Shown here one piece after another: positions 12,107 through 58,187 of a stretch of DNA of 64,000 nt. The notes under the pieces are model-generated. The model saw only the letters and a program-made list of their open reading frames with translations. It searched no databases and was not told where the DNA came from. The stretch lies in the IMG/VR virus record IMGVR_UViG_3300045771_000049, positions 32,001 to 96,000 of that record. One strand, 5' to 3'. Position 1 is the first letter of the stretch; the number at the start of each line of letters is the position of its first letter. Position numbers and translations under genes: made by a program. Origin of the DNA: a virus (lineage: Duplodnaviria; Caudoviricetes).

Positions 12107-12667
12107 TTCACATGAATATCGTTCCGATATGTTTCCGCTATCCAGTTTATCCTGGTCATAGTTCGCGAATTCAGATCGAATTTGACTTGGATTGAATACT
12201 ACGTATTGCGTAATGGGCGTTTTTCCATCCGGACTATCGGTTAACGTGTCCGGCAGGACGATCCCATCATAGCCATTGGCTTGGAGAAATTGACGGGCAG
12301 CAGGGTAATCGGTCGTGTCACCATTCATCCGGATTTGCCGTCCGCCGACCACGTAGTCGGGTTTTCTGAATGTGGTGAAACGATCGACCAGATCACGGAT
12401 TTCATTGTAGCTCTTGATCACCCAGGGATGCTTCAAGCGCAACCGCACCGGCATGACCGACGCGCCCTGTCCCCGTGCGGCAAAATCGGCAAACCCTGAA
12501 GCCGCCTCGGGATTATCCGTAAACCAGATGCCCAATGGACCTTCGCGCGATCCACTGCCCAGCTTACTGCCCATTTCAAAGGTGTGAAAATCTTTGTTAG
12601 TGCCGTGAAATGCTTTGATATTGAACCCAAGCTGTTCGGGACGGCCGATTAATTCCATGAGCCGCAT
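12092..12667 (-). CDS. ART-PolyVal-like ADP-ribosyltransferase domain protein
   Basis: FHGT, GIWFT, VMPVRL, GYDG, VVFNPSQIRS; last codons now supplied by the IS end. Confidence 0.8.
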   Translation of the reverse strand: MRLMELIGRPEQLGFNIKAFHGTNKDFHTFEMGSKLGSGSREGPLGIWFTDNPEAASGFADFAARGQGASVMPVRLRLKHPWVIKSYNEIRDLVDRFTTFRKPDYVVGGRQIRMNGDTTDYPAARQFLQANGYDGIVLPDTLTDSPDGKTPITQYVVFNPSQIRSEFANYDQDKLDSGNISERYSCELPRP

Positions 12668-15600
12668 CAGTATTTGCCTGTGCGCGTGGGAGTCGTGGCC
12701 GCCACTCTTGGCTGGTCTTGTGCCGCGCTCATATCCACAGAAACGTTTGGCGTGGTTTCGTCGGTCGCCTGCTTCACATCATTGACCTTAACGTTGATAT
12801 CGCGCTTCGGCACATCGTGCTGGGTTTGTGTCCCGGTCCCGTTTTTCCATTTGACCGCGAACCGGTAGAACGCGCTGGTCGGATGAGGCCGGTGCGGTCG
12901 GCGGGCCGGAGCCGAGGTGCCGCCACCAAACCCATCGGTCCGCAGATTGAGACCGGGTACGCCTGTGCCGATCTGCACGATCCCAGGCGGATGAACCACC
13001 GCGCCCCCAGTGGCAATCGGATCGCCAGAGACATCCTGGATCGTGCCGCCATTCAGATTAAGCGCAATGATCCGCAGATCGTCCGTGTTCTGATTATCGC
13101 CGATAGTATAGGAAAATACTATCGCATTGCCCGGTGCCGGATCGCCCATGTAGGTTGCGATGCCGCCATCATTCAGGCTCAAGGTTGGCGAACCCGTTAC
13201 CGTTACCTGTTCGCTCAGGTAAAGGGTCATCAAGGCAGTCGAACCCAGCGTCAGCGAACCCGAGCCATTGGTCACATCAGCGCCGGTAATCGCCACCGAG
13301 ATGATGATCGCTTGGTTGCAGCCGACGGTATCCTGTGCATTGCCGGTTTCCGACGTGTTGCTGGAGTCAATCCCCATGATAACGGCCATATCAACGGCCG
13401 AACAGGTTTCCGCAACGCCAGCGATATAAATCGCTGTTGCATTGGTCTGATCAAGCGCGAGACCGGTGTCTGTGCTATTCGCCACCGCCCATTCGGCGAT
13501 CTCACAGGCATCGGCAAGCTCGCAAAGCTCGGTCACATCATCAATCGAGGTGTCAAGCGCACTGGTGGCATCGGCAGACAGTCCGCCTTCGATAATAGCC
13601 GCAAGAGTGATCAGAGTGGCATCCGTGCGGTCCGCCATGCCCCCCGTTTCGACCACCGCCTGCGTGCTGATCAGAACACTATCGGTCAGGTCCGCCGCAA
13701 CCCCGAACTCGATGATCGACGCCAAAGTCATGTAAGTGGCATCAACCACTTCGATCGTCAAATTGGATTCCATCACCGGCACGAGTGTCACGATGGCATC
13801 GATACACATTTCGCGCGCGACCGCATTGACCTCTTCAATATCCGCATAGGTGTTCCAGATGCAATCGACTTGGTCGGTCGCACCCCCCAGTTCAGCAATG
13901 GTCGCCGCGAACCACACAAACACGGCGATCTGATCCGTTATCGTTTCGGCTTCATCCACCCCAATCCCGGAGAAGTTGCCGCCATTGCCACTATCACTGG
14001 CGCCTTCGAGTTCATCGACCTCGCCGACGAAAACATCATCCCTCGTATCCATCGAGTCTACACAGTTGCCAAACTCTGCGATCGTTGTAATGAAGGTCGC
14101 CGTGCTGTCGGCGATATCGCTGCATGAGCCGAGATCACCAGCGCTGCCGCCAAACTGACTGAAGGCGGTGTCAGGCAGGTCGGCACAGGACAAGAAGTCT
14201 CTGGTATCGCCATTGAAATTGCTGCTCAGCGTATCGAAACTGTCGAGCGCTGCGCATAGTTCTGCCACCGTACTGGCGAAGATCGCGACGACGCTGGCCT
14301 GATCGAGGGTCGCTTCGGTTTCCTCTGTATCTCCATCGAACAGGCTGGCAAACGTATTGACACTATCTTCTGGCCCGCAATTTTCAGGCGTCTCACCAAC
14401 GAACAGATTGGCCCGATTGTCGGTCAGATCGAGCGCGATCGGTATCTCGTCGATTTGGGCGACGAAGATCGCGGTTATGCCGCTCGTATCCCCAATGATG
14501 CCGATCTCGTCGGTTTCCCCGCTATAGGTGCTGGCGATGATAGCCGACAGGTCAACCAGAGCGCCGGTTTCATCGGTCTCGCCGCCCAGCAGGTTCGCGT
14601 AGGTATCGGTCAGATCAGACGCCGCGCCAATTTCAGCGATCACGGTAGCAAACACGGCCACCACGTTCGTCAGATCGGTGCTAGCGCCGGTTTCATCGGT
14701 CTCGCCGACCCATATACTATCGGCGGTGTCTACGGTCTCAGTGAGGCCCAGCGGCTCGCTTACGTCACCTGGGGCGATGTTCGCGGCGAACGGAGCATCA
14801 AGCAGGTTACAAAGCTCCACAACCGCACCCCAGTAGGCGCTTGGCCCGACATCAACGAGGTCCTCGGCGTCAGGAAATTCGGCGATGATCCCCTCGGTGA
14901 TGTCTACGTCTACCGGCTGGTCAAGTAGATCAGCGCTCTCATCGACCTCACCGACGAACACGCTGAGGGCTTCGTTCGTGAGGTCCAGCGCCGTTCCGGT
15001 GTCCGTCGTGTTGCCTAGGTAGACACTTTCGTAAGTGTCGAGGTGATCCCTGGCGAAACAGAAATTGAACGCGCTGGCGACAAAATCGGCCTGCGTGTAG
15101 CAGGTCTCATCCGCTTGGCCGGTTTCGTCGGTTTCACCCACGTAAACACTGGCGATGACATCAGCCCAATCACTCGCACCAGCGGTCTCGGATGCATCAC
15201 CGCCATATTGCGCCTCGAAGGTATCGAAACTATCGATCGCAGTTCCGGTTTCGAGGCAGTCAACAATATAATCAACGGTGGTATCACACTCATCGGCTGA
15301 AGACGCAGTTCCTTCGTTAATATTCGCGTTGCCAATATGACCCGCGTTAACGATTTCGGCCGCGTGCAGGGTGTCGCTGGTCGCTCCGACGAACAGATTG
15401 TCGGCGGTATCGGCCAGATCGAGCGGGGAGGCGAATTCCGCATTGGACCCGATGAACACGGCAGTGGCGCTGAGAGCATCCGTGCAGCCCTCGGCTTCGC
15501 TAATTGCCCCGCCAAACATGCTGTCATATTCTTCGGCATCATCCAGCAAGCCGTAGATTTCGCTGGCGTTACCGTTGAACAGATTGAACCCGTTATCGGA

Positions 15601-18600
15601 GGCATCCGTCAGGCCGCCATATTGGTCAAGCTCATCGATCTCGGCGGCAAATACCGCACTGACATTGGTCGCGTCTTGCAGCGTCGTGAGCAGATCATCC
15701 GTATCACCACCCAGCAGACAGCCATAGAGATCGGCGGCCTCGGCGAGACTGCCCGTTTCGCTCGTGTCGCCGCCAAAAATGCTATCGCTGGTGTCTACAA
15801 GCTCACTGAGCGCACCGGTTTCCTCGGTTGTGCAGGCGAACCATGCAGTGGCATCCACAATTTCTGCGGCCCAGCCGGTTTCGTCATAGGTCCCCACGAA
15901 GCTGCTTGGACCAGGGGCGCATGCATCACCCAACCCGTCCGCATCGGCGATATCACCGCCAAAGATGTTGGCGAAATTATCAGCATCGTCCTGACAGTTT
16001 CCAGCATCCTCGATATCACTGATGAAGATTGCCGTCGCGTCTGTGACGTCATTGGCGGCCAATGTTTCGGCCATATCGCCTACGTAGTCACTGTCCGCAA
16101 CATCACTGCTATCGCTGATAGCAAGGCTTAAATCGATCGCGCTATTGGCGATGTTCTCGCCCGCGCAGCCATCAATGCCAATACCGAATTCTGCAACAGC
16201 ACCGACGAATATACTGTCCAGCGTGTCGGTCAAATCGGCGCCATCCAGGAATTCAAACTCCAGGCCATACGTGCTATTGACATCGACTACAAAATCATCA
16301 ATGAACTGCGCATCTTCTTCGATATCACCGACGAAAATGTTATCAGAGACGTCAACCACATCTGCCAGATCGCTGAATTCACTCGTGTGACCGGTATAGA
16401 TACTGCCGAAATCATCTACGCTGTCGGTGAGTACGCCATCATCTTCGATATCCGTAACGAAAATTGCGGTCGCGTCGGCCGGATCATCAGCAAAGCCAAA
16501 TTCATCCACTTCACTGACAAAATCAGCATTGGCGCCGCTCTCATCCGAAATCGTATCAGCATCCGTCGAATCGCCGACGAACACGTTGGCATAAACATCC
16601 ACCCAATCTTCGCCAGCCAGGGTCTCCTCAGTCTGGGCAACGAAGATGGTAGTGCAGGTGATAACATCACTGGCCGTCAGTTGCTCTTGAACCGCGCCGA
16701 TGAAAATGCTTGCAAACGTATCAGTGAGTTCATCCAGTTCGCCCAGTTCACTGGCATCCCCATCGAACGTATCATCGATCGTGTCCATGGCGTCGCGACC
16801 ATCACCCGCCTCATCCACTTCGGCCGCGAAGATTGCCGAGCAAGCGGACTGGTCACCTGCATCCAGCGTTTCGTCGGTCTCGCCCACGAAAATGCTGCCG
16901 AAAGTATCGGCCGCATCGAGCGACGCACAGCTATCGAGAGTTGCGCCATTGTAAAGGCAGAACTGGGTATTAGTCTGATCAGCGGCGGCGCTTGTCTCAT
17001 CACAGAACGAAACAAAATCAGTGGTCTCGGTCAGACCATCACTGGGTGTCAGTCTCTCATCGGTTTCGCCGACGAAAATGCTGGCAGTGAGATCGGCATA
17101 GTCGGCCGCATCCAGCCCATCGCTATTATCGCCTCCAAAGACGTTAGTGGTATTGTCGGTAAGATCGGCACCGAAAGCGTCCTCCACCGCGTCTACGACG
17201 AAAATCGCAGTGCTGCTCGGGACATCCAGCACGGCGAGTGCATCGCTGGTGGCCCCATTGAGGATGCTGCCGAGACAATCCGGCAGATCGATAAGTTGGC
17301 CATCCTCCTGCACATCACCCAGGAACACACTGGCATAGGTGTCGGTGAAGTCATGAACATGGGCGAAATTGACCCCTGTCGCGACAAACAGCGCGGAGCA
17401 ATTGGCCTGTTCTGCCGCATCCAGGGTTTCATCGGTCTCACCGTCAAACACGCTGGGGCCGGTGTCAACACTGTCTGCGAGATCGGCGGCTTCATCGCAC
17501 TCGGCCACGCCGATGATATTGGCCGCAAGCGCATCGATCGCGGCACCAAGCTCATCGGTTTCGCCGACGAAGAGACTGGGCGCGGTGGCGACCGGCTGGT
17601 CATTGGCGCCCAAGGCTTCGTTGATGTTGACTAGGGTCTGGTCGGTTTCCGAGGCGAAGTCACCAATGCTGCCAGTTTCGGTGTATTGGCCAACCAGGGT
17701 GCTAGGCCCGAGGTCCGAAGCGTCGCCCGTCGATCCAGTTTCAGTGACAGCACCGTCGAAGCTATTTGAGTCATTATCGGTTTGATCGGCGGCATTCGCT
17801 GTCTCGACGCTGAGACTGACGAAGACCGCAGTGCTATCACAAACGTCGAGCAAGGCGCCGGGTTCGATGCAATCACCACCAAATGCGCCACCGAAGATAT
17901 CCGGCTGGTCTGCGACCCAACCCGCTTCATCGGTGTTGCCACCATAGATATCCATGTGACTATCAGCAATATCGGTGGCGAAACGCACGTTATGGATGGT
18001 GGTGTTGAAGATCGCGGTGCGATCAAGCGCATCCGTGATATGGGTTTTTTCGGTGTAATCGCCCAGGAAAATACTGCCCGAGCCATCAGTTGTATCGGTC
18101 GCGTTTGCCAGTTCATCGGCCTCGCCAATGTAGATGCTGGCAAAGTTATCGGCGTAATCGGCGAGAGTGCCGAGTTCGTTAACCGAGGCAATGAAGATGG
18201 CGGTTGCATCGCAGGCGTCCAGAACCAGAAGGTCATCGGCCAGCGCACCGACAAACAGGCTGTTCAGATCGTTTGGTGAATCAGCGGCATTGGCGATTTC
18301 GCTGCCATCGCCGACCCATTGACTGATTGTCGTGTCAGACGCGTCTGTGATCGAAACGATCTCGGCGATCAGCGCCGCGAACACGGCTGTGGTGTCTGTG
18401 CGATCGGTCGTTGTGGCAAGCACTTCGCCTTCGATGCCGGTGAGGATATCGTAAAGGGAATCGCTTTGGTCACCGGTCGCGCCCGCCTCAACCGTGGCCC
18501 CGCCAAAGACGTTGCCCTCGGTATCACTCAGGTCATCGAGTGCTCCGTTTTCGAGGCAGGTGCTGAGGAAACTGGCCGTAATCGTTTCAGCATCAGAGGC

Positions 18601-21600
18601 CGATCCCGTTTCGGTTTCCGCCCCCACGAGCGTATCGTCCAGTGAGGTGACGAAATCGACCGGGACACCTGTGTCTGTGGTGGCGCCGCCGAAGAGGTTC
18701 CCTGAATTATCGCAGGTATCACCGGACGCTCCGAAGTCACTGATGGAAACACTGAAGTCTGCATGATTCGCGACTGTGTCGAGAGCCGCCGCAGAGGCGT
18801 CATCAATGGCGCCATTAAACAGGTTGTTGGCGGTGTTGCTGGCATCCTGGGTCTGGCCTTGCTCATCGGTTTCGCCGACGAACACACTGAGATTGGTGGC
18901 TGTGATCTCGACGACCGCCCCAGTCTCATCGGTTTCACCAACAAAGCTATTGGCGTTTGTATACACAACTTCGGCGATTGCGCCGGTCTCATCGGTTTCA
19001 CCAACAAAGCTATTGGCGTTTGTATACACAACTTCGCCGATCGCGCCGGTCTCAGCGATAGCGCCGACGAATATGCTGGCATGGGTGTCTGTGGTATCGG
19101 CAAGGTCGTTCAGATCATTAATGAAATTTTCATTTTGATCGCCTGCTTCGATCCCTAGATCGGTTAATGCGCCGCTTTCCGCAACTGTGCCAACGAAACC
19201 ACTCTGTGCGGTAGTTGTCGCCTCGGTTGCGTTGCCAAACTCAAGACTTGTAACGACGAAACTGGCCACCGAGGTGGCGAGATCACTGGCTGCGCCATTC
19301 TCAGCAACAGCGGACCCGGTGATCGTGTTGCCGAGTGTGGTGTCAGCCGCAGCCAATAGCTCATTGGCGCTGCCACCAAACAGACTGGAGGCGGTGCCCG
19401 AGGTATCAGTCGCGAGGCCAGAATCGGCAATTGTAGCTACCGCAACGATCGTCGTGGAAATATATTCGAGGGCCGCACCAATTTCGTCAGTTTCTCCGAC
19501 AAAGAGGTTCAGATTCGTGTTCGAATAGTCACTCGCCGCGCCGGTCTCGCTTGCGGCACCGCCAAAGAGGCTGGGGGCGACAGTCGAGCCATCGTCCGCA
19601 GTGCCAGAATCGGCAATCGCGCCCCCATAGCTGCTCGGTGCCTCATTCGTCGCATCATTCGCCCCGCCCGCTTCGTTGACCAGGACCAAGGTGATATCGG
19701 TTTCGGCTTCGCTATCGGCGAGGGCCAAGGGTTCCCATACGGCGCCGACGAACAGATTGCCTGCTGTGGCCATTGTGTCGGTCGCTGAGAGGCTTTCCGG
19801 GGTTTGGCCGACGTAGAGGCTGGCTGCCACGTCCATGGCGTCAGTGGCCGTCCCAGCCTCGGCATAAGCACCGACGAAGATGCTGGCGAACAGACTGGGA
19901 CTATCAGCCGCATTCAGCGGCTCGGCGTCGCTCCCGACAAAGCTGCTAATCGTGGTAGCCAGCAATTCGGCCGCCGCGCCCGATTCGATTGTAGTCCCAA
20001 CATAGACACTGGGCGCTTCATTGACTGAATCGCTGACCAGATCGATCTCGTTGACCGTGGTATTGGCAATGAAGATAGCGATTTCGCTATCAGCCACATT
20101 GCCGGTTTCGGCCAGGGCGCCGCCAAAGGAACTATTGGTCGTGGCCGGGCTATCGAGAGCGGTGCCCGATTCGGCAACAGTGGTCGCGAAAATCGCCTGG
20201 ACTGCGGTGGCATCCGTGCCAAGCAGAGTTTCACCGTCCACAACTGTGGTAATGACATAGCCAGATTCCAGATCGCTTGCGGCCCCGGTTTCGGCATTGG
20301 CGCCCCCGAAACTGCTCGGCCCGGCATTGCTCAGATCGACGGCATTGGGGGTCTCTGCGATATTGGCAAAGGTCTGATAAGTCGCTGAGGGGACATCAAG
20401 TGCTGCGCCAATTTCGTTCGTCGCACCCACGAATACGTTTTGATTCAGGCTGACGCTTTCGACGAGATTACCAGTCTCGACTACTGCTCCCACAAATACA
20501 CTGGCAAACGTACTGGCTGCGTCATTTGCCGTCCCAGTATCGGCAATTGCCCCGTTGAAAAGACTTGGTGCTGTGGTCGCGGAGTCGGTCGCTGAACCGG
20601 TTTCGTTGGTGCTGCCGATCGCGGTATTCAGGGCACTCGGGTTATCGCTCGTCGCCCCGGATTCGGCGATCGCGCCAATGAAGACATTCTGATTGGTGGA
20701 AGGGATATCAGAGGCGCCGCCCATTTCGATGACTGTGGCAACCGCCAGTTCGGTTTCGGTCACGAGGTCCGATGCTAAGCCGGTCTCGCCGACGCTTACA
20801 TTCGTAATATAAACCGAGCTAGTAAGATCAGCCAGTGCGCCGGTTTCAGTCAAAGCTCCGACGAACGTATTGGCACTTGTGTTTACAGTATCGCTGGCCG
20901 ATCCGGTTTCCGGTGTGCTACGGTTCGCCGTGGTGAAGGCGATCAGACTATCGACCGCGTTGCCGTTTTCGGCGATCGCGCCTAGGAATATACTGGCATT
21001 TGTGGCTGGGATGTCGGTTGCCGAACCAGTCTCGCTGATTGCGCTGAGGGTAATATAGGTGGCAGAAGATTGATCAAATGCATTGCCGTTTTCGGGCGTA
21101 TTGCCGACCCATATATCTTGGGTGACACTGACCGTATCAGAGGCGATGCCTGTTTCGGCGACATTCCCTGAGTACAGACTGGCAAAGGCATTGGTCGCAT
21201 CATTGCTTGAGCCGGTTTCGGTGATGGCGCCAACGAAAATACTGCCGAGTGTGTCAGGATTGTCAAGCGCCGCGCCCAGTTCATCGGTTTCGCCCACAAA
21301 CGTGCTGATCGTCGTGGCCGGACTATCGCTCGCGTTGCCTGCTTCATTGATGATCGCGGCTGCGAGATAGATCGATCCCACGGCGTCAGAAGCGGCCCCG
21401 ATCTCGCTGTCGTCGCCACCATAGCTGCTGCCAAACGGAACCGTAGTATCAGCCGCATTGCCAAATTCAGTGATAAGCCCAAAGGTAATATCGGTCTCAT
21501 CGGTTGCATCAGTTAGCGCGCCAGTTTCGCCCGTGTTGCCCACATAGGTGCTGGCGATGATGGCTGTCGCCTCCGCAAGCGTGCCGGTTTCGGCCACCGC

Positions 21601-24480
21601 CCCGCCGAGAAGATTGGCGAGCGAATTGACCGCATCTGTGGCCAGACCCAATTCACTTATGTTACCAACGAAATTACTATTCGAGGCATTGACTGCATCA
21701 CTCGCATTGCCAGTTTCGGCGATGTTTCCAACGAATGTGCTGGGGCCGGTGTTCGCAATATCGGCGGCGCTTCCACTTTCGCTGATCGAGACATTGGTGA
21801 TCTTGCTGGCATTGGTCGTATCGGCTATGGCGCCCGCATCTGCGATCGCGCCAATAAATATGCTAGGCGCGGCAAGAACCATATCGCTGGCCGCACCAGC
21901 CTCTGCAATGCTGACATTTGTCGCATCGGTATTGGTGACTTGGTCGGATACGGCTCCGCTCTCATTGACCGCACCCACAAAGGTATTGGCGATAACGGTT
22001 ACATTGTCTTGAAGATTGCGAACCTCACTGGCATTCACGACCCCGTCTGGGGATGTCTGGGTGATCTGGTTCATCTGCAACGTGACAGCGGTCTGCGAGA
22101 GGAATCGCGCATAGGCCGCCGCCCCGGTCATCAACGCGATCGAGGTCGCGCCAAGCACAATGCCTTGGAACGAGGCGCCCGTGCCGATGGTCGAACTAGA
22201 AGCGATCACCCAGAAGATGTTTTTGGCTTGCAGACCGCCGCTGAGCGTAATGATCACCGAATTGGCTACGGTGAAGGTTCCGGCGACTTGGAGAACATAG
22301 ACATCGTTCGGGCCGCCCGTCAGGGTGACATTTGTGCTGACCAGAAGCCCGCTGGTCCATTTATAGATGCCAGGGGTAAGCGTTGCGCCGCCGATTTGGC
22401 CTGCGCCGAATTCACTGAAAGCAGGTGGGGCGCGGCCCACACCGTCATTGTAGGCGGTGAGCATATCGCCAACCGCGATGCTTAGATACGACGCGTTGAT
22501 AACCGCGCAGGGTGCTGGACCAGCCGCATCAACAACATAAATGTCACCGGTTACTTCACTGCAAGAAAGCAACATGGCGGCGCCCGTGATCGGACTAGTG
22601 CCCACATCGCCAACAACCACCGAAGGAAAGACATCGGTAACGCCAGACTCAGACAGGATGACAAAGTTGCCCGCTGTTCTGAGATTGATGGGTGATAGAT
22701 TTAGTCCGGTCGTGTCGGCGGCCGAACCTGATTCGGTGATCGCCGCACTGGTGATCTGCGTGGCTGCCACAACATCCGAGGCAGCGCCGGTCTCATTGAT
22801 TATGCCATTGAAGGTGCTGATCGTGGTCGAAGTGACCGCAGCCGCGTTGCCGGTCTCAACCACATTGCCAAAATACGTGCTCGCGATGATCGCCGCAACA
22901 TCTACACCTGCACCGCTTTCGTTGATGTTTCCACTATAAGCACTTGCGGCAATGGCCGGGATATCGACAGCCAACCCGCCTTCGCTCGTGCTGCCAACAT
23001 AGCTACTGGGTGCGGTAGCGCAACTATCATTTGCGGCGCCAGTTTCACTGACCAGAACGAACGTGAGATCGGTATCCAAGACCGTGTCGGTCGCATTACC
23101 GGTTTCGCTGATATTGCCGAAATACGTACTCGCAGCCACGCCAAACAGATCGACGGCATTACCAATTTCGATAACATTGCCGAAATAGACGCTTGCAACC
23201 ACACTCGTCAGATCAGTGGCCGCTCCAGTTGCCGTGATGGCAGCCGATGCGACATAGGTTTCGCTGGTCGCATCGACGATCGTCGTGTTGATCGTAACAA
23301 ACTCGACAACCGGTGATGCTTGGGTTGTACTGGCTTGGCCGAAGATCAGGGCAGCGTTGCCATTGACATCGGCTGTGAATGGAACGGTCACCCATGTTCC
23401 AGCGTTGGGAACGGTCCAACTGCTCGTGATGGTCGTTAGAAGGACGGTGTTGACCGTCAGGGTGAACACATAGTTGAGATTCGGACTATTATCGCCGGAC
23501 AGCAGGAAATTAACCGTGTACGGAGCAAATGGCACCAGCCCAGTCTGCGTATAGCTGGCTTGACCGACTGGGGTGGTTTCGTTGATTTGAAACGCACAGG
23601 CGCCGGACAATGAATCGATCAGTAGCCAACAGTTCCCTGCAAACGTCCAGCCCAGCGCGCTGGTTAAATTATATTGAGACGCACTTTCCATCGTTTGCGT
23701 TGTGATCGAACTACGATAGGTTCCAACGAACGCCGAACTTGAAAAATTCTGACTGTAGACGACGAAGGGCGTTTCGGCGACGCTGCCAGTGAAGATGCTA
23801 TTACTTTCATTGGGCGTGTCGGTCGCGTTGCCGGTTTCAGCCACGGTTGCGGCGAGCGGAGCCGCCAATGCCTCGATCAAAGAGGCACCGACAATATTGC
23901 TCGGCACCGTGTATTCGGCAAGTATTTCAGTATTGGTGGCGCCACCAAACAGTGTGACGGCCTCGATCGGGATGTTCGTGTTGGTAGTGTTGGTCATCAA
24001 CACGGTTGCGGTCGGGACGCTAACCGCGAGCGTGAGGGCAGCGTGATAGCCCATACCAAGGGCGATGCCGAGACTCGCCCCACCGGTCGTGTAAAGGGCG
24101 ACGGTATCCGCTGTGATACCAGCAAAAGTCGTAGTAGTGGTGCCGATTGGAAGGGTGGTCTTGGTCCCGGCGAGGCCGACCGCGAGGCAGACGGCAATGT
24201 CACACGCACTGCTGCTGGTGATCGACACCGAATTCGAGCCGGTTGGCGGATTGATCAGATACCACGCCCAGAGCGTCTGGTAGTTCGTCCCGGCTACCGA
24301 AACGATATTGGTCATTGCCGTGCCACCATAAGTGCAGGTCGGCACGTAACTGTATTTGCTTTGCGTGTAATAATAGACGATTAGTAGCGAACAGCCAGTT
24401 GCATTATAGCTTTGCGTATAGCTTAACGGGGTGCTGCCTGCCGAGTTGCCGGTTGAATAGGATACAATGGAAGATGACAC
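12667..24480 (-). CDS. giant (3937 aa) acidic repeat virion fibre/adhesin with DUF3494 ice-binding-like domain
   Basis: well over 100 ~20-22 aa ETG.A.D repeats; DUF3494-like domain ~22060-22690; Ig-like adhesin domain ~12970-13300; CTAAATA at 24515-24521. Confidence 0.8.
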   Translation of the reverse strand: MSSSIVSYSTGNSAGSTPLSYTQSYNATGCSLLIVYYYTQSKYSYVPTCTYGGTAMTNIVSVAGTNYQTLWAWYLINPPTGSNSVSITSSSACDIAVCLAVGLAGTKTTLPIGTTTTTFAGITADTVALYTTGGASLGIALGMGYHAALTLAVSVPTATVLMTNTTNTNIPIEAVTLFGGATNTEILAEYTVPSNIVGASLIEALAAPLAATVAETGNATDTPNESNSIFTGSVAETPFVVYSQNFSSSAFVGTYRSSITTQTMESASQYNLTSALGWTFAGNCWLLIDSLSGACAFQINETTPVGQASYTQTGLVPFAPYTVNFLLSGDNSPNLNYVFTLTVNTVLLTTITSSWTVPNAGTWVTVPFTADVNGNAALIFGQASTTQASPVVEFVTINTTIVDATSETYVASAAITATGAATDLTSVVASVYFGNVIEIGNAVDLFGVAASTYFGNISETGNATDTVLDTDLTFVLVSETGAANDSCATAPSSYVGSTSEGGLAVDIPAIAASAYSGNINESGAGVDVAAIIASTYFGNVVETGNAAAVTSTTISTFNGIINETGAASDVVAATQITSAAITESGSAADTTGLNLSPINLRTAGNFVILSESGVTDVFPSVVVGDVGTSPITGAAMLLSCSEVTGDIYVVDAAGPAPCAVINASYLSIAVGDMLTAYNDGVGRAPPAFSEFGAGQIGGATLTPGIYKWTSGLLVSTNVTLTGGPNDVYVLQVAGTFTVANSVIITLSGGLQAKNIFWVIASSSTIGTGASFQGIVLGATSIALMTGAAAYARFLSQTAVTLQMNQITQTSPDGVVNASEVRNLQDNVTVIANTFVGAVNESGAVSDQVTNTDATNVSIAEAGAASDMVLAAPSIFIGAIADAGAIADTTNASKITNVSISESGSAADIANTGPSTFVGNIAETGNASDAVNASNSNFVGNISELGLATDAVNSLANLLGGAVAETGTLAEATAIIASTYVGNTGETGALTDATDETDITFGLITEFGNAADTTVPFGSSYGGDDSEIGAASDAVGSIYLAAAIINEAGNASDSPATTISTFVGETDELGAALDNPDTLGSIFVGAITETGSSNDATNAFASLYSGNVAETGIASDTVSVTQDIWVGNTPENGNAFDQSSATYITLSAISETGSATDIPATNASIFLGAIAENGNAVDSLIAFTTANRSTPETGSASDTVNTSANTFVGALTETGALADLTSSVYITNVSVGETGLASDLVTETELAVATVIEMGGASDIPSTNQNVFIGAIAESGATSDNPSALNTAIGSTNETGSATDSATTAPSLFNGAIADTGTANDAASTFASVFVGAVVETGNLVESVSLNQNVFVGATNEIGAALDVPSATYQTFANIAETPNAVDLSNAGPSSFGGANAETGAASDLESGYVITTVVDGETLLGTDATAVQAIFATTVAESGTALDSPATTNSSFGGALAETGNVADSEIAIFIANTTVNEIDLVSDSVNEAPSVYVGTTIESGAAAELLATTISSFVGSDAEPLNAADSPSLFASIFVGAYAEAGTATDAMDVAASLYVGQTPESLSATDTMATAGNLFVGAVWEPLALADSEAETDITLVLVNEAGGANDATNEAPSSYGGAIADSGTADDGSTVAPSLFGGAASETGAASDYSNTNLNLFVGETDEIGAALEYISTTIVAVATIADSGLATDTSGTASSLFGGSANELLAAADTTLGNTITGSAVAENGAASDLATSVASFVVTSLEFGNATEATTTAQSGFVGTVAESGALTDLGIEAGDQNENFINDLNDLADTTDTHASIFVGAIAETGAIGEVVYTNANSFVGETDETGAIAEVVYTNANSFVGETDETGAVVEITATNLSVFVGETDEQGQTQDASNTANNLFNGAIDDASAAALDTVANHADFSVSISDFGASGDTCDNSGNLFGGATTDTGVPVDFVTSLDDTLVGAETETGSASDAETITASFLSTCLENGALDDLSDTEGNVFGGATVEAGATGDQSDSLYDILTGIEGEVLATTTDRTDTTAVFAALIAEIVSITDASDTTISQWVGDGSEIANAADSPNDLNSLFVGALADDLLVLDACDATAIFIASVNELGTLADYADNFASIYIGEADELANATDTTDGSGSIFLGDYTEKTHITDALDRTAIFNTTIHNVRFATDIADSHMDIYGGNTDEAGWVADQPDIFGGAFGGDCIEPGALLDVCDSTAVFVSLSVETANAADQTDNDSNSFDGAVTETGSTGDASDLGPSTLVGQYTETGSIGDFASETDQTLVNINEALGANDQPVATAPSLFVGETDELGAAIDALAANIIGVAECDEAADLADSVDTGPSVFDGETDETLDAAEQANCSALFVATGVNFAHVHDFTDTYASVFLGDVQEDGQLIDLPDCLGSILNGATSDALAVLDVPSSTAIFVVDAVEDAFGADLTDNTTNVFGGDNSDGLDAADYADLTASIFVGETDERLTPSDGLTETTDFVSFCDETSAAADQTNTQFCLYNGATLDSCASLDAADTFGSIFVGETDETLDAGDQSACSAIFAAEVDEAGDGRDAMDTIDDTFDGDASELGELDELTDTFASIFIGAVQEQLTASDVITCTTIFVAQTEETLAGEDWVDVYANVFVGDSTDADTISDESGANADFVSEVDEFGFADDPADATAIFVTDIEDDGVLTDSVDDFGSIYTGHTSEFSDLADVVDVSDNIFVGDIEEDAQFIDDFVVDVNSTYGLEFEFLDGADLTDTLDSIFVGAVAEFGIGIDGCAGENIANSAIDLSLAISDSSDVADSDYVGDMAETLAANDVTDATAIFISDIEDAGNCQDDADNFANIFGGDIADADGLGDACAPGPSSFVGTYDETGWAAEIVDATAWFACTTEETGALSELVDTSDSIFGGDTSETGSLAEAADLYGCLLGGDTDDLLTTLQDATNVSAVFAAEIDELDQYGGLTDASDNGFNLFNGNASEIYGLLDDAEEYDSMFGGAISEAEGCTDALSATAVFIGSNAEFASPLDLADTADNLFVGATSDTLHAAEIVNAGHIGNANINEGTASSADECDTTVDYIVDCLETGTAIDSFDTFEAQYGGDASETAGASDWADVIASVYVGETDETGQADETCYTQADFVASAFNFCFARDHLDTYESVYLGNTTDTGTALDLTNEALSVFVGEVDESADLLDQPVDVDITEGIIAEFPDAEDLVDVGPSAYWGAVVELCNLLDAPFAANIAPGDVSEPLGLTETVDTADSIWVGETDETGASTDLTNVVAVFATVIAEIGAASDLTDTYANLLGGETDETGALVDLSAIIASTYSGETDEIGIIGDTSGITAIFVAQIDEIPIALDLTDNRANLFVGETPENCGPEDSVNTFASLFDGDTEETEATLDQASVVAIFASTVAELCAALDSFDTLSSNFNGDTRDFLSCADLPDTAFSQFGGSAGDLGSCSDIADSTATFITTIAEFGNCVDSMDTRDDVFVGEVDELEGASDSGNGGNFSGIGVDEAETITDQIAVFVWFAATIAELGGATDQVDCIWNTYADIEEVNAVAREMCIDAIVTLVPVMESNLTIEVVDATYMTLASIIEFGVAADLTDSVLISTQAVVETGGMADRTDATLITLAAIIEGGLSADATSALDTSIDDVTELCELADACEIAEWAVANSTDTGLALDQTNATAIYIAGVAETCSAVDMAVIMGIDSSNTSETGNAQDTVGCNQAIIISVAITGADVTNGSGSLTLGSTALMTLYLSEQVTVTGSPTLSLNDGGIATYMGDPAPGNAIVFSYTIGDNQNTDDLRIIALNLNGGTIQDVSGDPIATGGAVVHPPGIVQIGTGVPGLNLRTDGFGGGTSAPARRPHRPHPTSAFYRFAVKWKNGTGTQTQHDVPKRDINVKVNDVKQATDETTPNVSVDMSAAQDQPRVAATTPTRTGKY
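18923..19054. repeat. near-perfect 63-bp tandem duplication inside the giant gene
   Basis: GTCTCATCGGTTTCACCAACAAAGCTATTGGCGTTTGTATACACAACTTCG at 18923 and 18986. Confidence 0.9.
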
Positions 24481-53490: not shown

Positions 53491-54859
53491 ATGAAACATT
53501 CAGTCCGGCCCATCATCGCGGGTATGGTTTTATTCTGTATCCCGGCCTTTCTCAATCGCTCCCCGCTGCTGTTTAGTGATAGCCGATCGTACTATATCGG
53601 CGGCAAAATGGTCCTCGATCGAGCCCTCAGCGTGGTGCAGAGGCTGCTCGGACGGACAACCCTATCGACCGAGGTGGTGGTCACCCACGCCAAAGCCGTG
53701 CGATCGATTTTCTATTCGCTGCTGTCCTACTTATTGGCCAGCAATATGACGTTATGGGCGATCATTCTGGTTCAGGCGGCGCTCGCGGCCTGGGTTATCG
53801 TCGCCACCAATGCCACATTCTGCCGCCCCGCCCGTTCGCTTCCCCTGCTGGTGTTTCTGACCGTGTTTAGCTCTCTGCCATGGGCGGTCTCGATGTTCAT
53901 GCCAGACATCTTCACCCCGTTAACCGTGCTCTCCTTGCTGTGTCTGCTGCTCGGGTGGGATGCTCTGAGTCCGACTCTGCGCAAGGGGTTGCTCGTGATG
54001 TTTCCGGCCAGCCTCGTCATGCATCTGACCAATCTGCCGATCGCCCTCGGGGTGACAGTGATGGCAGCGGCAATGCACTGGCGCTCGCTATGGGTCGAAA
54101 AGGCGCGGTGGCTCTCGGTCATCGCTGCGCTCTGTGTGGCAGTTCTGGCCATGCTGAGCGTCAGTGTCGTAGGCTTCAACAAATGGACCCAGGCCGCAAA
54201 ACCCGCCCTTCCTGCTGGCGCGGTCGATCGCGGATGGTCCGGCTAAACTGTATTTGCTGGAGCATTGCCCGCAAATCAAGCTGGTGATGTGCCAGTATCT
54301 GGATCGCCTCAACACGGACGCCGATGATTTCATTTGGAGCAGCAACGGGGTGTTTTCCAATGTCTCGCCAGAGGAACAGGATGCCATCCGCGCCGAGAAC
54401 GGGCCGATCGTGATCGCCGCCGCGCTCGAATATCCCTGGCTGCAAATCGAAGCCACCACATTCGATATCATCGATCAGTTGTTGTATTTCGATCTGCACG
54501 ATAGTCGGTTCCCCAATTCAGCCCAGATTACCCGCACCGAGATGACCAGTTCGATCGGACTGACCTATCCCGATTGGGTGTTCGCTTTGTCAGTGCTCGA
54601 TTACATCGTGGTGGCAGGGTCCTGTTTGACCCTGGCATGGCTCTGGGGAACCGGCGAACTCAGCCCGCAGATGAAGCAACTGATCAGTCTGATCATCCTG
54701 GCGGTGCTGCTAAATTCGTTTACCGGCGCCATCTCGCAACCCTCGGCGCGGTATGGCGCGCGGATCATTTGGCTGCTGCCGATGGTCGCATGGTTGGCGG
54801 CCGTCCGGGGAACTAGATTGCAGTTACAGAATGAGTTTCGCTTTGAGAACACCGGCTGA
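53491..54859 (+). pseudogene. polytopic membrane protein split by a frameshift near 54190
   Basis: ORF 53491..54246 continues in another frame as PPFLLARSIADGPAKLYLLEHCP into ORF 54254..54859. Confidence 0.6.
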
Positions 54860-54949
54860 TCGCGCTGCCGTCATGCTCGGGTTTAGCTGCGCGGTAGTTC
54901 ACGTGGACAATGCCGAGCATCCGTTCGGCCGGATGATAAATAGGTGGGT

Positions 54950-55498
54950 ATGCGCTACCATGAAATCATCACCAATTCTGTCACCGAAGCATTGGATCAT
55001 TCCCAGCGATTATTGTTTCACGGCACCACGTTCCTTCGCGCATCTGAGGTGATTGCTGATGACCAGCTAGATGCTCGAACCACCGACAATGCACGCGGCT
55101 TAGGTCATGGAACTAAGGGGGTCAGTTTAACGCGCTCGTACCAGTTTGCTACAAATTTCCGCTTGGCTCGTCGATCGGTGGTGTTTGTGCTCGATGGCCG
55201 TCATCTCGTTACGCAACCAGTGGCCTATTGGTCAGCCGAGGAGCGGCGCAAGAATGGTCGAGCAGATGAAATGGAGGAATACCATATCGGCCCAATCGCC
55301 CCTCTGTCGCGTTATTTGATCAGTATCAACAGCGTTGCATCATTCGATATGTGGTACAAGCAAGTTACTGATACCCCTGACAACCCGTATGAACCGGCAG
55401 AGAAAACCAATCTGGTGCGTCAGGCGATCGAACGAGGGTTTCCGATGGCCAAGAAGCTTTGGAACCGCTGGAAGCCGGTTCAAGGCGTCGCATCATGA
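54950..55498 (+). CDS. ART-fold protein
   Basis: TAAATA at 54937; MRYHEII..VTE; LFHGT...VSLTRS...EMEE. Confidence 0.75.
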   Translation: MRYHEIITNSVTEALDHSQRLLFHGTTFLRASEVIADDQLDARTTDNARGLGHGTKGVSLTRSYQFATNFRLARRSVVFVLDGRHLVTQPVAYWSAEERRKNGRADEMEEYHIGPIAPLSRYLISINSVASFDMWYKQVTDTPDNPYEPAEKTNLVRQAIERGFPMAKKLWNRWKPVQGVAS

Positions 55499-55688
55499 CC
55501 AACGACTCTCGCACCTGCTGGGCTGGTGGCGGCCGGAGCCATTGAGGTCGATCGGCGCGGCATCGCGGCTGTGATCGAGCGCCAACGCCCGGTCTGGATC
55601 GCCGAATATGAGGCCGCCCGTGAACGCGGCCAGGAGCGCCCCTGATGGCCCGACCGGATGACCGACCCTGTGATAGACAAACTGCCGC

Positions 55689-55720
55689 TTGACGTGCTTA
55701 ATAGAATCAGGATACATATA
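55689..55720 (+). promoter_or_regulatory. sigma70-like promoter for the Val leader/tRNA cluster
   Basis: TTGACG-N18-TACATA, 7 nt before ATG 55726. Confidence 0.5.
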
Positions 55721-55725
55721 CCGCC

Positions 55726-55824
55726 ATGTTCACAACCTCACCCATGATTGCGCTCCGCAAGACGGCCAAAGCCGATGGGATTGTCGTGCGCGTCGTCCGA
55801 ATGCGACATCGTCATGTCGTCTAG
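55726..55824 (+). CDS. putative Val-rich leader peptide
   Basis: MFTTSPMIALRKTAKADGIVVRVVRMRHRHVV*; 54 nt upstream of tRNA-Val. Confidence 0.55.
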   Translation: MFTTSPMIALRKTAKADGIVVRVVRMRHRHVV

Positions 55825-55878
55825 GGATTGATGGCTGGTAGCGAATGCTGCCCGGCCCACCGATTCTAGATTGGTTAT

Positions 55879-55953
55879 GGGCGCGTAGTTCAGGGGTAGA
55901 ACGCCTGTTTTACAAGCAGGATGCCGGTGGTTCGAAACCATCCGCGCCTACCA
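55879..55953 (+). tRNA. tRNA-Val(TAC)
   Basis: canonical cloverleaf; TT-TAC-AA loop; GTTCGAAAC; CCA end. Confidence 0.92.
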
Positions 55954-56030
55954 ATCCCCGAAATGTGGTTTCTTGTGAATAACAGGGCAGTGGTGAAGTT
56001 GTCGGCGACCGCACCTGACCAACTTTAAAT

Positions 56031-56102
56031 GGCGGGACTTCTCGGGAAGGGACGCGTTTCATAAGCGCATCTAGACCGGTTCGATGCCGGTACCCGCCAC
56101 CA
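56031..56102 (+). tRNA. tRNA with CAT anticodon (Met or Ile2), atypical D arm
   Basis: GGCGGG/CCCGCC acceptor; TT-CAT-AA loop; ACCGG-TTCGATG-CCGGT T arm; CCA end. Confidence 0.7.
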
Positions 56103-56166
56103 TCCCTCAGAACAACCGGCTTGTTGGCGCGATAGATAGCGGCTCAACAAGCAAGGTTAGTCGTCC

Positions 56167-56466
56167 ATGAGTGATGTTCCCAACTATACCCATTATCTTC
56201 GTCTTGCCTTCACCGGATACTGGACCGACAGTTGTCCCTCGGCCGAGAAGTTCTACGTTTTGGGCAAAGCCCTCAACGTTACTCTGACCGATGTCTACGA
56301 ACTAGAGTCTGAAGTGCTTGGCATGATGACAGAATGGTACGGCGACCGCATCACCGAGGTCACCTATATCGGCCATATCAATGTCAGGTTGTCCGACACT
56401 GATGTGATCGACGAGGGTTGGTATGTGTTTGACCCAGAATCCATCCAGCCGCTGCCGGTGGGCTGA
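56167..56466 (+). CDS. hypothetical protein
   Basis: ORF between the tRNAs and rpmG. Confidence 0.5.
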   Translation: MSDVPNYTHYLRLAFTGYWTDSCPSAEKFYVLGKALNVTLTDVYELESEVLGMMTEWYGDRITEVTYIGHINVRLSDTDVIDEGWYVFDPESIQPLPVG

Positions 56467-56468
56467 GC

Positions 56469-56637
56469 GTGGCGAAGAAAAACCACAGTTCAGATTAAGC
56501 TGATCTCGACCGCTGATACCGGATACTTCTACGTCACTACCAAGAACTCTCGCAGCAAAGCGAACAAATTGGTGCTGCGCAAGTATGACCCGGTGGTCCG
56601 TAGACATGTCGATTTCAAGGAAACCAAAATCAAATGA
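56469..56637 (+). pseudogene. rpmG: 50S ribosomal protein bL33 with one extra A after the GTG start
   Basis: [52 protein letters not shown]; GTG 56469 is out of frame by one base in an A5 run. Confidence 0.85.
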
Positions 56638-56654
56638 TGAACGTGAACTAAAGC

Positions 56655-56740
56655 TGGTGGGGGCTGAGGGGGTCGAACCCTCACTTCCTAACGGAAACCT
56701 GATCTTAAATCAAGCGCGTATGCCTTTTCGCCAAACCCCC
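56655..56740 (-). tRNA. tRNA-Leu(TAA)
   Basis: cloverleaf with long variable arm; TT-TAA-GA loop; CCA end. Confidence 0.92.
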
Positions 56741-56760
56741 TTTGAGGCTTCCAGATTGGA

Positions 56761-56848
56761 TGGTGTGGGCGAGAGGAATTGAACCTCCACGATCCTCTCG
56801 GACCAACAGGGTTTGAGCCTGTCGCGGCTGCCGTTACGCCACGCCCAC
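56761..56848 (-). tRNA. tRNA-Leu(CAA)
   Basis: cloverleaf with long variable arm; CT-CAA-AC loop; CCA end. Confidence 0.92.
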
Positions 56849-56850
56849 AC

Positions 56851-56948
56851 AAAGAAAAACCCCCTTACCGATCTGGCAAGGGGGTTCGCCCGTCGCGTGG
56901 GATCGGTGATGGGGGTCAGGTTAAGCGTAAGGTGCGATGCGGGTGCAT
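56851..56948 (-). promoter_or_regulatory. putative ribosome-mediated attenuator (Leu-UUA leader peptide + terminator/antiterminator)
   Basis: leader MHPHRTLRLT* at 56948-56916 with two TTA codons; terminator AACCCCCTTGCC-AGATC-GGTAAGGGGGTT-TTTCTTT; competing ACCCCC-ATC-ACCGATC segment. Confidence 0.7.
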
Positions 56949-56953
56949 AATTC

Positions 56954-58166
56954 CGCTATTATGTAGCAAACGCCACCAAATCATCCGCTGGAGTAGCCAG
57001 ATGCCCAAGTCGCTCGCGAGCAATATTAGCATAAACAGGGTTCAATTCGATCAGCGTCGCTCGTCTGTTCAATTCACCAGCAACCAAGCCGGTCGTTCCG
57101 GCGCCCCCAAACGGATCAAGCACCAACTCTCCTTCGGGACATCCAGCAAGAATGCAGCGCCGGGCTAATTCTGGTGGCATCGTGGCAAAATGTGCGCCGT
57201 GAAATGGCTTTGGGGCAATAGTCCAGACATTCCGACCGTTGCGTGTTACGTTGTTCAGAAATTCTCGGGTATATCCACCTAAAACCTGCTTTGCCTCGGC
57301 AGCAAGCTTCATCACTTCGGACGTGTTGTGCCCAAATCCGTCTTGCGTGATTTGAGACTTACCCACATCGGTAATCCCGCAGGCGCGTAGTGCAGCAAGA
57401 TGGGCTGATGTTAAACCGCCGCGCTCAGCCAATTCCAACGCCCGTCGCATTTGCGGCCGATCAATCACGGCAGATGGTTCAGCCAACGAATCGGCATCGT
57501 AATAATAGTGCGGACGTTTGGATAATAAATAGACCTTTTCGTGGGCACTGGTAGGCCGATCACGTACGGCTTCCGGCATTTGGCTGGTTTTATGCCATAT
57601 GATTTCGCTTCGTAAAAACCAGCCATCGGATTGAAGCCCAATCGCTACACGTGACGGAATCATCATCAGGTCTTTAGGCTTATAGCCGCTCGGTACGGTT
57701 TTTTCGCGTCGCTTACCTGTGACGTTGTCGATATACGCCTGTCCAGTCGAGTGAAATGCATCACTATGCGATGTGCCCTGCTTGCCGTGATGGGTCGCCG
57801 CATAACTGTCGCCCAGATTGAGCCAGACCGTGCCATCGTCACGCAACACGCGCCGCACCTCGCGAAACACGTCCACCAGTCTTGCCACGTAGGCGTCAGG
57901 TGTCTGTTCCATGCCGATCTGACCGTCAACTTGGTAGTCGCGCAGGCCAAAATACGGCGGCGAGGTCACACAGGTCTGAAAATGGAACTTAGGTAGTGTT
58001 TGCAATATTCCCATGCAGTCTCCGATATGGAGATGGATACTTTGAGAGTTCTGAAATTGTATAAGGTCATCTAATGGCATTCAACTACTATAAAGGCTCT
58101 CTATTCTGTAAGACTATTTATTAATGACTGAATGGGCGGTTTGGTGGCGTTTGCTACATAATACCG
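56954..58166. mobile_element. non-autonomous IS1595-like cassette carrying a DNA methyltransferase
   Basis: 27-bp IRs (26/27 identical) CG(C/G)TATTATGTAGCAAACGCCACCAAA; 8-bp direct repeat CATAATTC at 56946-56953 and 58167-58174; no transposase. Confidence 0.85.
56959..58080 (-). CDS. beta-class DNA N4-cytosine/N6-adenine methyltransferase
   Basis: TSPPY; HFATMP; LDPFGGAGTT; stop codon lies inside the IR. Confidence 0.92.
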   Translation of the reverse strand: MPLDDLIQFQNSQSIHLHIGDCMGILQTLPKFHFQTCVTSPPYFGLRDYQVDGQIGMEQTPDAYVARLVDVFREVRRVLRDDGTVWLNLGDSYAATHHGKQGTSHSDAFHSTGQAYIDNVTGKRREKTVPSGYKPKDLMMIPSRVAIGLQSDGWFLRSEIIWHKTSQMPEAVRDRPTSAHEKVYLLSKRPHYYYDADSLAEPSAVIDRPQMRRALELAERGGLTSAHLAALRACGITDVGKSQITQDGFGHNTSEVMKLAAEAKQVLGGYTREFLNNVTRNGRNVWTIAPKPFHGAHFATMPPELARRCILAGCPEGELVLDPFGGAGTTGLVAGELNRRATLIELNPVYANIARERLGHLATPADDLVAFAT

Positions 58167-58187
58167 CATAATTCTATATATCATCCT

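Follow-up and report, generated by a model that had tools for sequence, protein, structure and literature searches.

A Val/Met-rich leader ORF ahead of tRNA-Val and tRNA-Met genes in a probable jumbo phage: a codon-matched leader without a canonical terminator

Leader-peptide attenuation is the textbook mode of regulation for amino-acid operons. In ilvGMEDA (Ile/Leu/Val), ilvBN (Val/Leu) and thr (Thr/Ile), as well as in trpL, hisL, leuL and pheL, a short ORF with matched codons lies near the promoter, as it does in the phage locus analyzed here. The ilv and thr leaders also resemble this locus in carrying codons for more than one amino acid, matched to the supply made downstream, with the speed of the ribosome as the presumed signal. 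That a component of the translation apparatus can be placed under this type of control is illustrated by pheM of Escherichia coli, the leader/attenuator of pheST, in which leader and target concern the same amino acid. For tRNA genes themselves, a full-text literature search found no published case of leader-peptide control.

The locus, a short ORF followed by a tRNA-Val gene and a tRNA-Met-like gene (hereafter the Val/Met unit), differs from the ilv/thr-type attenuators in four respects: (i) the genes that would be controlled are tRNA genes and not biosynthetic enzymes, (ii) the mRNA is apparently leaderless, (iii) a T-run terminator and an antiterminator are both missing, and (iv) the Val codons are not those that its tRNA reads best. 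Its three sibling leaders on the same contig share with the ilv/thr-type attenuators a terminator and, in two of the three siblings and in a homologue from a related phage contig (G001), a modelled ribosome switch, the Asp/Glu/Thr leader giving a mixed result. Because terminator, antiterminator and kind of target gene all miss, we do not file the Val/Met unit as an attenuator of the trpL/hisL/ilvL type; by promoter geometry and matched composition it belongs instead to the phage's own set of leaders heading tRNA genes.

Other comparisons are equally partial. The target of pheM is a protein-coding synthetase operon with a canonical terminator, whereas here tRNAs follow without a terminator. In the ermCL and cat leaders and in tnaC, a ribosome held at the end of the leader ORF blocks a downstream RNA event, and the Val-Val-stop end of the Val/Met ORF offers the same geometry; however, what arrests the ribosome in those systems is a drug or free tryptophan acting on the nascent peptide, and not tRNA supply, and unlike these systems the Val/Met unit sequesters no ribosome-binding site and has no rut-like region past the stop codon. 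The E. coli pheV and pheU promoters resemble the one described here in having a TTGACG-type -35 hexamer, a 17-18 nt spacer and a tRNA product, but there the tRNA begins about 10 nt past the -10 hexamer with no ORF in between, whereas here a transcribed leader of about 153 nt intervenes. We considered pheU and pheV as a precedent for an attenuator-like leader and rejected them because the promoter abuts the tRNA and there is no leader ORF.

The window, a stretch of 64,000 nucleotides, comprises bases 32001-96000 of a 152,147-bp IMG/VR virus contig that encodes a portal protein and further phage proteins. Given that CheckV estimates this contig to be 36% complete, the genome is probably that of a jumbo phage of about 400 kb. 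ARAGORN detects 12 tRNAs in four blocks on the contig, two of the blocks lying outside the window (Table 1). The tRNA-like gene with anticodon CAT is called by ARAGORN only, the Rfam tRNA model not reaching E <= 1 at 56031-56102; it has a very short D-loop and an A-A mismatch at the seventh acceptor pair and does not have the appearance of an initiator tRNA. A permissive Rfam scan of 54500-57500 for curated RNA families in the leader returned tRNAs only, and no T-box. Downstream of tRNA-Met, a 99-codon ORF occupies 56167-56466.

Table 1. Features of the Val/Met unit and of the neighboring Leu unit, in window coordinates
Feature	Position	Strand	Details
tRNA blocks of the contig			Trp-Phe-Tyr-Cys; Val-Met; Leu-Leu; Asp-Glu-Glu-Thr
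-35-like hexamer TTGACG	55689-55694	+	read in sequence
-10-like hexamer TACATA, after 18-nt spacer	55713-55718	+	read in sequence
Leader ORF, 32 codons	55726-55821, TAG 55822-55824	+	ATG at 55726
Val/Met-rich last 13 codons	55783-55821	+	6 Val, 1 Met among Arg, His; Val-Val-stop end
Small 7-bp hairpin inside last ORF codons	55803-55820	+	
Extended imperfect hairpin	55819-55871	+	-23.7 kcal/mol, z = -3.0; 2/200 shuffles as stable
Inner GC-rich hairpin	55833-55857	+	-14.6 kcal/mol, z = -3.2; T-poor tail, score -0.11
Tail between hairpin and tRNA-Val	55872-55878	+	7 nt, 4 T; tail score -1.60, no canonical T-run
tRNA-Val, anticodon TAC	55879-55953	+	ARAGORN; Rfam 65 bits
tRNA-Met-like, anticodon CAT, CCA encoded	56031-56102	+	ARAGORN only
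tRNA-Leu(CAA) and tRNA-Leu(TAA)	56655-56848	-	ARAGORN
Leu intrinsic terminator, 13-bp stem and T-run	56857-56887	-	directly before tRNA-Leu(CAA)
Leu leader, 10 codons	56916-56948	-	two TTA codons (in 9)

The original prediction, made from the letters of the sequence, had described TTGACG and TACATA 18 nt apart, an ATG 7 nt further on that opens a 32-codon ORF with six Val codons in its last 13, and a long imperfect hairpin over the stop codon followed by tRNA-Val(TAC), and every one of these elements is found in place. The ATG has no Shine-Dalgarno sequence in front of it. Transcription is predicted to start at or next to this ATG and thus to yield a leaderless mRNA, and the ORF is presumably translated. 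A search of the 152-kb contig with the pattern TTGACN, 17-19 nt, TAnAn(A/T), 4-12 nt, ATG/GTG returns two occurrences, which are the Val/Met unit and the leader of the Asp-Glu-Thr block; over the 13 nt before the ATG the two match at 9 positions. In all six leaders considered from this phage and from the related contigs G001 and G002, the ATG lies 5-7 nt past the -10-like hexamer. The dinucleotide GC precedes the -35-like hexamer in the Val/Met unit and likewise in sibling leader L1 and the L1 relative in G001.

The ORF contains two internal Met codons in addition to its six Val codons, and Val and Met together account for 8 of 31 codons compared to 7.4% expected from a six-frame translation of the contig. 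When the top-scoring ORF with an ATG start within 250 nt ahead of the tRNA is compared with 20,000 random 250-nt windows from the same genome, the empirical p for this enrichment is 0.004. In dinucleotide shuffles of the ORF body, the type of control that had been proposed together with the prediction, 0.27% of trials reach 8 Val plus Met codons (p = 0.0027), and local composition therefore does not explain the enrichment. The other two frames of the same stretch hold 3 and 1 Val/Met residues. In a cross-table of leaders against blocks, the Val/Met leader shows enrichment for its own amino-acid set (p = 1.6e-3), with p > 0.5 for each of the other three sets. Because tRNA-Met(CAT) comes next and the ORF has two internal Met codons, neither of which the original prediction had remarked on, the unit is better described as Val plus Met than as Val alone.

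At the level of codons the match is loose. Strict wobble cognates of tRNA-Val(TAC) and tRNA-Met occupy 3 of the 31 codons, which is not significant. The Val codons are, as had been pointed out at the outset, mostly GTC and not GTA, with five GTC and one GTG among the six; by strict wobble an anticodon TAC reads GTA and GTG only, and GTC requires four-way wobble. In Salmonella, a Val tRNA with a modified U34 is able to read all four Val codons. In this phage the commonest Val codons are GTG (37%) and GTC (36%), with GTA at 8%. The sibling Thr leader has an equally loose match, three of its seven Thr codons being ACC with an anticodon TGT in the block.

A short ORF stands at the head of every one of the contig's four tRNA blocks, and in the cross-table it is enriched only in the amino acids of that block. 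The leader of the Trp/Phe/Tyr/Cys block has consecutive Phe, Phe, Cys, Cys and Trp codons with Tyr close behind, and the Asp-Glu-Thr leader has seven Thr, two Asp and one Glu in 17 codons. Empirical p values for the three non-Leu blocks are 0.028, 0.004 (Val/Met) and 0.0007. The Leu leader gives p = 0.05-0.2 on the native cassette-free sequence, which falls short of significance on composition alone; it was scored on the sequence of the empty site described below, where the leader frame has 15 codons and the longer frame that enters the cassette is absent. Beside the Val/Met unit, a clear match by composition is thus seen in two of the three other blocks, Leu being the exception. Fisher's combination over the four blocks gives p ~6e-6 to 2e-5. 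In all three siblings a stable hairpin with a T-run lies directly before the first tRNA, with tail scores of -4.8 to -5.0.

To the methods of this comparison belongs that a simple pattern scanner with strict rules overlooks the terminator of sibling L1 as well as the leader promoters, and separate tail scoring was therefore used. To model ribosome position at equilibrium, 30 nt were kept unpaired at each codon in turn as the ribosome footprint, and the probability of the terminator helix was computed. In the Trp/Phe/Tyr/Cys leader this probability is 0.6-0.96 except with the ribosome at the second Cys or the Trp codon, where it drops to 0.15-0.23. In the G001 homologue it is 0.00-0.01 at the Arg-Trp-Arg-Phe codons and 0.95 from codon 15 to the stop codon, and in the Leu leader it stays at 0.00-0.09 through the first Leu codon and is 0.96 thereafter. 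The Asp/Glu/Thr units and the units of a more distant phage, G004, are mixed or flat in this model. On the basis of the folding calculations, the Trp/Phe/Tyr/Cys, Leu and G001 leaders would follow the classical logic in which a stall on the regulatory codons leads to read-through.

Relatives of the phage provide a test of the pairing between leaders and tRNAs. A search with the portal protein identified three partial contigs at 64-69% identity and one complete phage of 516,805 bp (G004) at 50%. G001 has a homologous leader, complete with promoter, leaderless ATG and terminator, before tRNA-Trp and tRNA-Phe only, and the codons of this leader include Trp, Phe and one Tyr but no Cys; in G002, a homologous leader lies before tRNA-Asp and tRNA-Glu only and has Asp and Glu codons but no Thr. 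The counterpart blocks here include Cys and Thr tRNAs, and their leaders have 2 Cys and 7 Thr codons, respectively. This covariation of leaders and tRNAs is the strongest evidence for what we suggest to be a functional tie between them. In G004, leaders of the codon-matched kind are found at 3 of about 30 tRNA units: one with four Glu codons in ten lies before three tRNA-Glu genes, and another, of 21 codons (479407-479670, minus strand; L038), has 12 consecutive strict-cognate codons, comprises a near-complete inventory of the codons of its block and is followed by a strong terminator. Each of these 12 codons fits a tRNA of the Arg/Leu/Lys run behind the leader, or a tRNA-Trp about 350 nt past the end of that run.

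A second Val/Met unit did not emerge from these comparisons. A Val tRNA is absent from the relatives G001-G003, and the Val tRNAs of G004 have no leader in front of them. The promoter-plus-start DNA pattern has 0 matches to a further such unit in viral contigs, and searches by way of the neighboring proteins of 99, 251, 833 and 605 aa gave no useful relatives, the 99-aa protein being confined to contigs of the same phage. The whole Val/Met unit is present on seven further contigs, which are identical to the window over the surrounding 511-nt stretch; an eighth, a 1.1-kb fragment, starts within the ORF, at about 55798, and shows no difference from that point on.

In total, the general idea that codon-matched leaders stand before tRNA blocks is supported by sequence comparison. 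By composition and promoter geometry, the Val/Met ORF is beyond chance and a genuine member of this family; its sensing half, made up of promoter, leaderless ORF, Val/Met run and the hairpin across the stop codon, is intact. The original prediction went further, proposing that each tRNA gene is gated by a peptide rich in its own amino acid. The matched leaders before all four blocks and the covariation in two relatives speak for this proposal; against it, the Val/Met unit has neither a terminator nor an alternative fold, and this particular unit is only a putative gate.

The read-out half of the Val/Met unit is where it departs from its siblings. A stretch of 54 nt separates the stop codon from tRNA-Val, and the last Val codon together with the stop codon makes up the 5' foot of the extended 53-nt hairpin. 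The pattern scan found no match to a T-run terminator between ORF and tRNA, and the tail scores (-0.11 behind the inner hairpin and -1.60 behind the extended one, compared to -4.3 to -5.0 in five siblings and relatives) agree with it in bearing out the absence of a U-tract terminator remarked on at the outset. The unit is the sole leader without a proper transcription stop among the four on the contig. In ribosome-masked folding, the hairpin keeps a probability of 0.77-0.89 with the ribosome at every Val and Met codon from 20 to 31, so that no antiterminator is encoded in the unit. If the ribosome is taken to shield 14 nt beyond its A site, the hairpin's 5' foot is fully covered only at Val31, Val32 and the stop codon.

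Combining these data, we suggest, at about even chances, that the Val/Met unit is a fourth codon-matched leader that still modulates read-through by occlusion of its hairpin, possibly with the help of pausing or Rho. In this model, a host-type promoter would start the RNA at or beside the ATG to give a leaderless mRNA, and a ribosome would translate 32 codons, with Val and Met predominating among the final 13. The end of the ORF, Val-Val-stop, coincides with the hairpin's foot, and 7 nt remain between the closed hairpin and tRNA-Val. A ribosome awaiting Val-tRNA at the last two codons would hold the hairpin foot open, and RNA polymerase would run into tRNA-Val, tRNA-Met and perhaps the 99-codon gene; once the ribosome has finished and gone, the hairpin would close and the polymerase would be slowed or weakly stopped. 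Since a U-run is absent, closure of the hairpin would at best pause or weakly release the polymerase, and in view of the missing T-run and antiterminator such control would be leaky or would rely on pausing or Rho. The effect of the unit on read-through is thus a predicted one, and the read-out may be either weak and non-canonical or lost.

More tentatively, we propose that the four leaders together provide per-amino-acid feedback, each block being made only when its codons are decoded slowly, e.g. upon loss or cleavage of host tRNAs, and that the Val/Met unit is a terminator-less variant in which a ribosome parked on Val-Val-stop would itself serve as antiterminator. If true, this would mean that large phages adjust their tRNA supply to a demand that they sense separately for each codon set, and it would bear on why phages carry tRNAs and how they cope with depletion of host tRNAs. 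With a sensing half and no canonical terminator, the Val/Met unit would lend itself to use as a natural negative control, or else point to a second mechanism of read-out.

Alternatively, the Val/Met unit may be the relic of an attenuator, in which promoter and ORF were kept and the terminator was lost, e.g. in an event that brought the tRNA gene up to the hairpin, with the consequence that tRNA-Val and tRNA-Met would be constitutive and the ORF without effect. We regard this as somewhat unlikely. Its appeal lies in the tail region: among the nine leaders examined the Val/Met unit is the only one without a T-run, it is the only one of the contig's four in which a hairpin is present with no T-run behind, tRNA-Val begins 7 nt past the hairpin at the place where the siblings have their T-run, and the codon match of the leader is loose. 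Decay would, however, be expected without selection, yet the ORF is intact with significant Val/Met enrichment (the known copies are all identical), and the hairpin is well formed and placed precisely on Val-stop. Alignment found no reliable homology with the siblings beyond the promoter, either for the unit as a whole or for the region past the stop codon, and a specific deletion of the terminator is therefore not claimed.

Rho-dependent attenuation, which the original prediction had raised and in which Rho would load on C-rich 5' leader RNA and terminate unless a stalled ribosome blocks its path, the hairpin serving as the pause site, is improbable. Over the first 60 nt, around the start, C/G amounts to 2.0, which is at about the 97th percentile of 60-nt windows and would suit such loading; an intrinsic terminator is missing, and the hairpin could pause the polymerase. 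On the other hand, a rut-like C-rich, G-poor region is absent after the leader stop, where the RNA is G-rich (C/G 0.6-0.9) and extends for just 54 nt before a structured tRNA, and the siblings rely on intrinsic terminators. That the ORF is a chance reading frame in the normal 5' leader transcript of a tRNA precursor, its codons bearing no relation to the tRNAs, is very improbable: the GC-rich stretch is indeed open in all three frames and the strict codon match (3/31) is not significant, but under two nulls the Val/Met enrichment reaches p = 0.003-0.004, the ATG coincides with the predicted start of a promoter that shares its geometry with one sibling leader only, two of the three other blocks match by composition and the Leu block has a terminator and a modelled switch, and in E. 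coli pheV and pheU, as examples of ordinary tRNA genes, the promoter lies directly at the tRNA with no ORF.

Several further observations concern the leaders and their surroundings. The -35 region reads GCTTGAC in three leaders (window 55688-55694; L002 18112-18118; L019 ~1786-1792), which we take to be the extended form characteristic of housekeeping promoters in alphaproteobacteria; in combination with the leaderless starts, it hints that the host is an alphaproteobacterium. Several CGN Arg codons occur in every one of the four leaders. TAG ends both the Val/Met leader and the Trp/Phe/Tyr/Cys leader, and tRNAs with anticodon CTA, i.e. of the amber-suppressor type, occur in relatives (L021 1501-1574 on contig G002, and G004 117291-117364). 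Amber read-through of the leader TAG was considered for this reason and rejected, TAG being an ordinary stop that ends 24 of 124 long ORFs; the next in-frame stop after such read-through in the Val/Met unit would be another TAG, located in the 3' arm of the hairpin.

A DNA methyltransferase cassette of 1.2 kb (window 56946-58174), with a minus-strand gene at 56959-58080, 27-bp inverted repeats and an 8-bp target duplication, is inserted precisely at the Leu leader's start codon and cuts this leader off from its native promoter. The empty site, from which the cassette is absent, is present in seven metagenome contigs of the same phage (L055-L061). In G002 (L018 1574-1860, minus strand), an ORF of ~93-108 codons with its own Shine-Dalgarno sequence lies between the leader terminator and tRNA-Asp/tRNA-Glu, and from its position behind the terminator this protein gene would share the attenuator with the tRNAs. 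The 99-codon ORF behind tRNA-Met in the window is placed in a similar way. Elsewhere in the window, the minus strand at 12667-24480 carries one uninterrupted reading frame of 3,937 codons.
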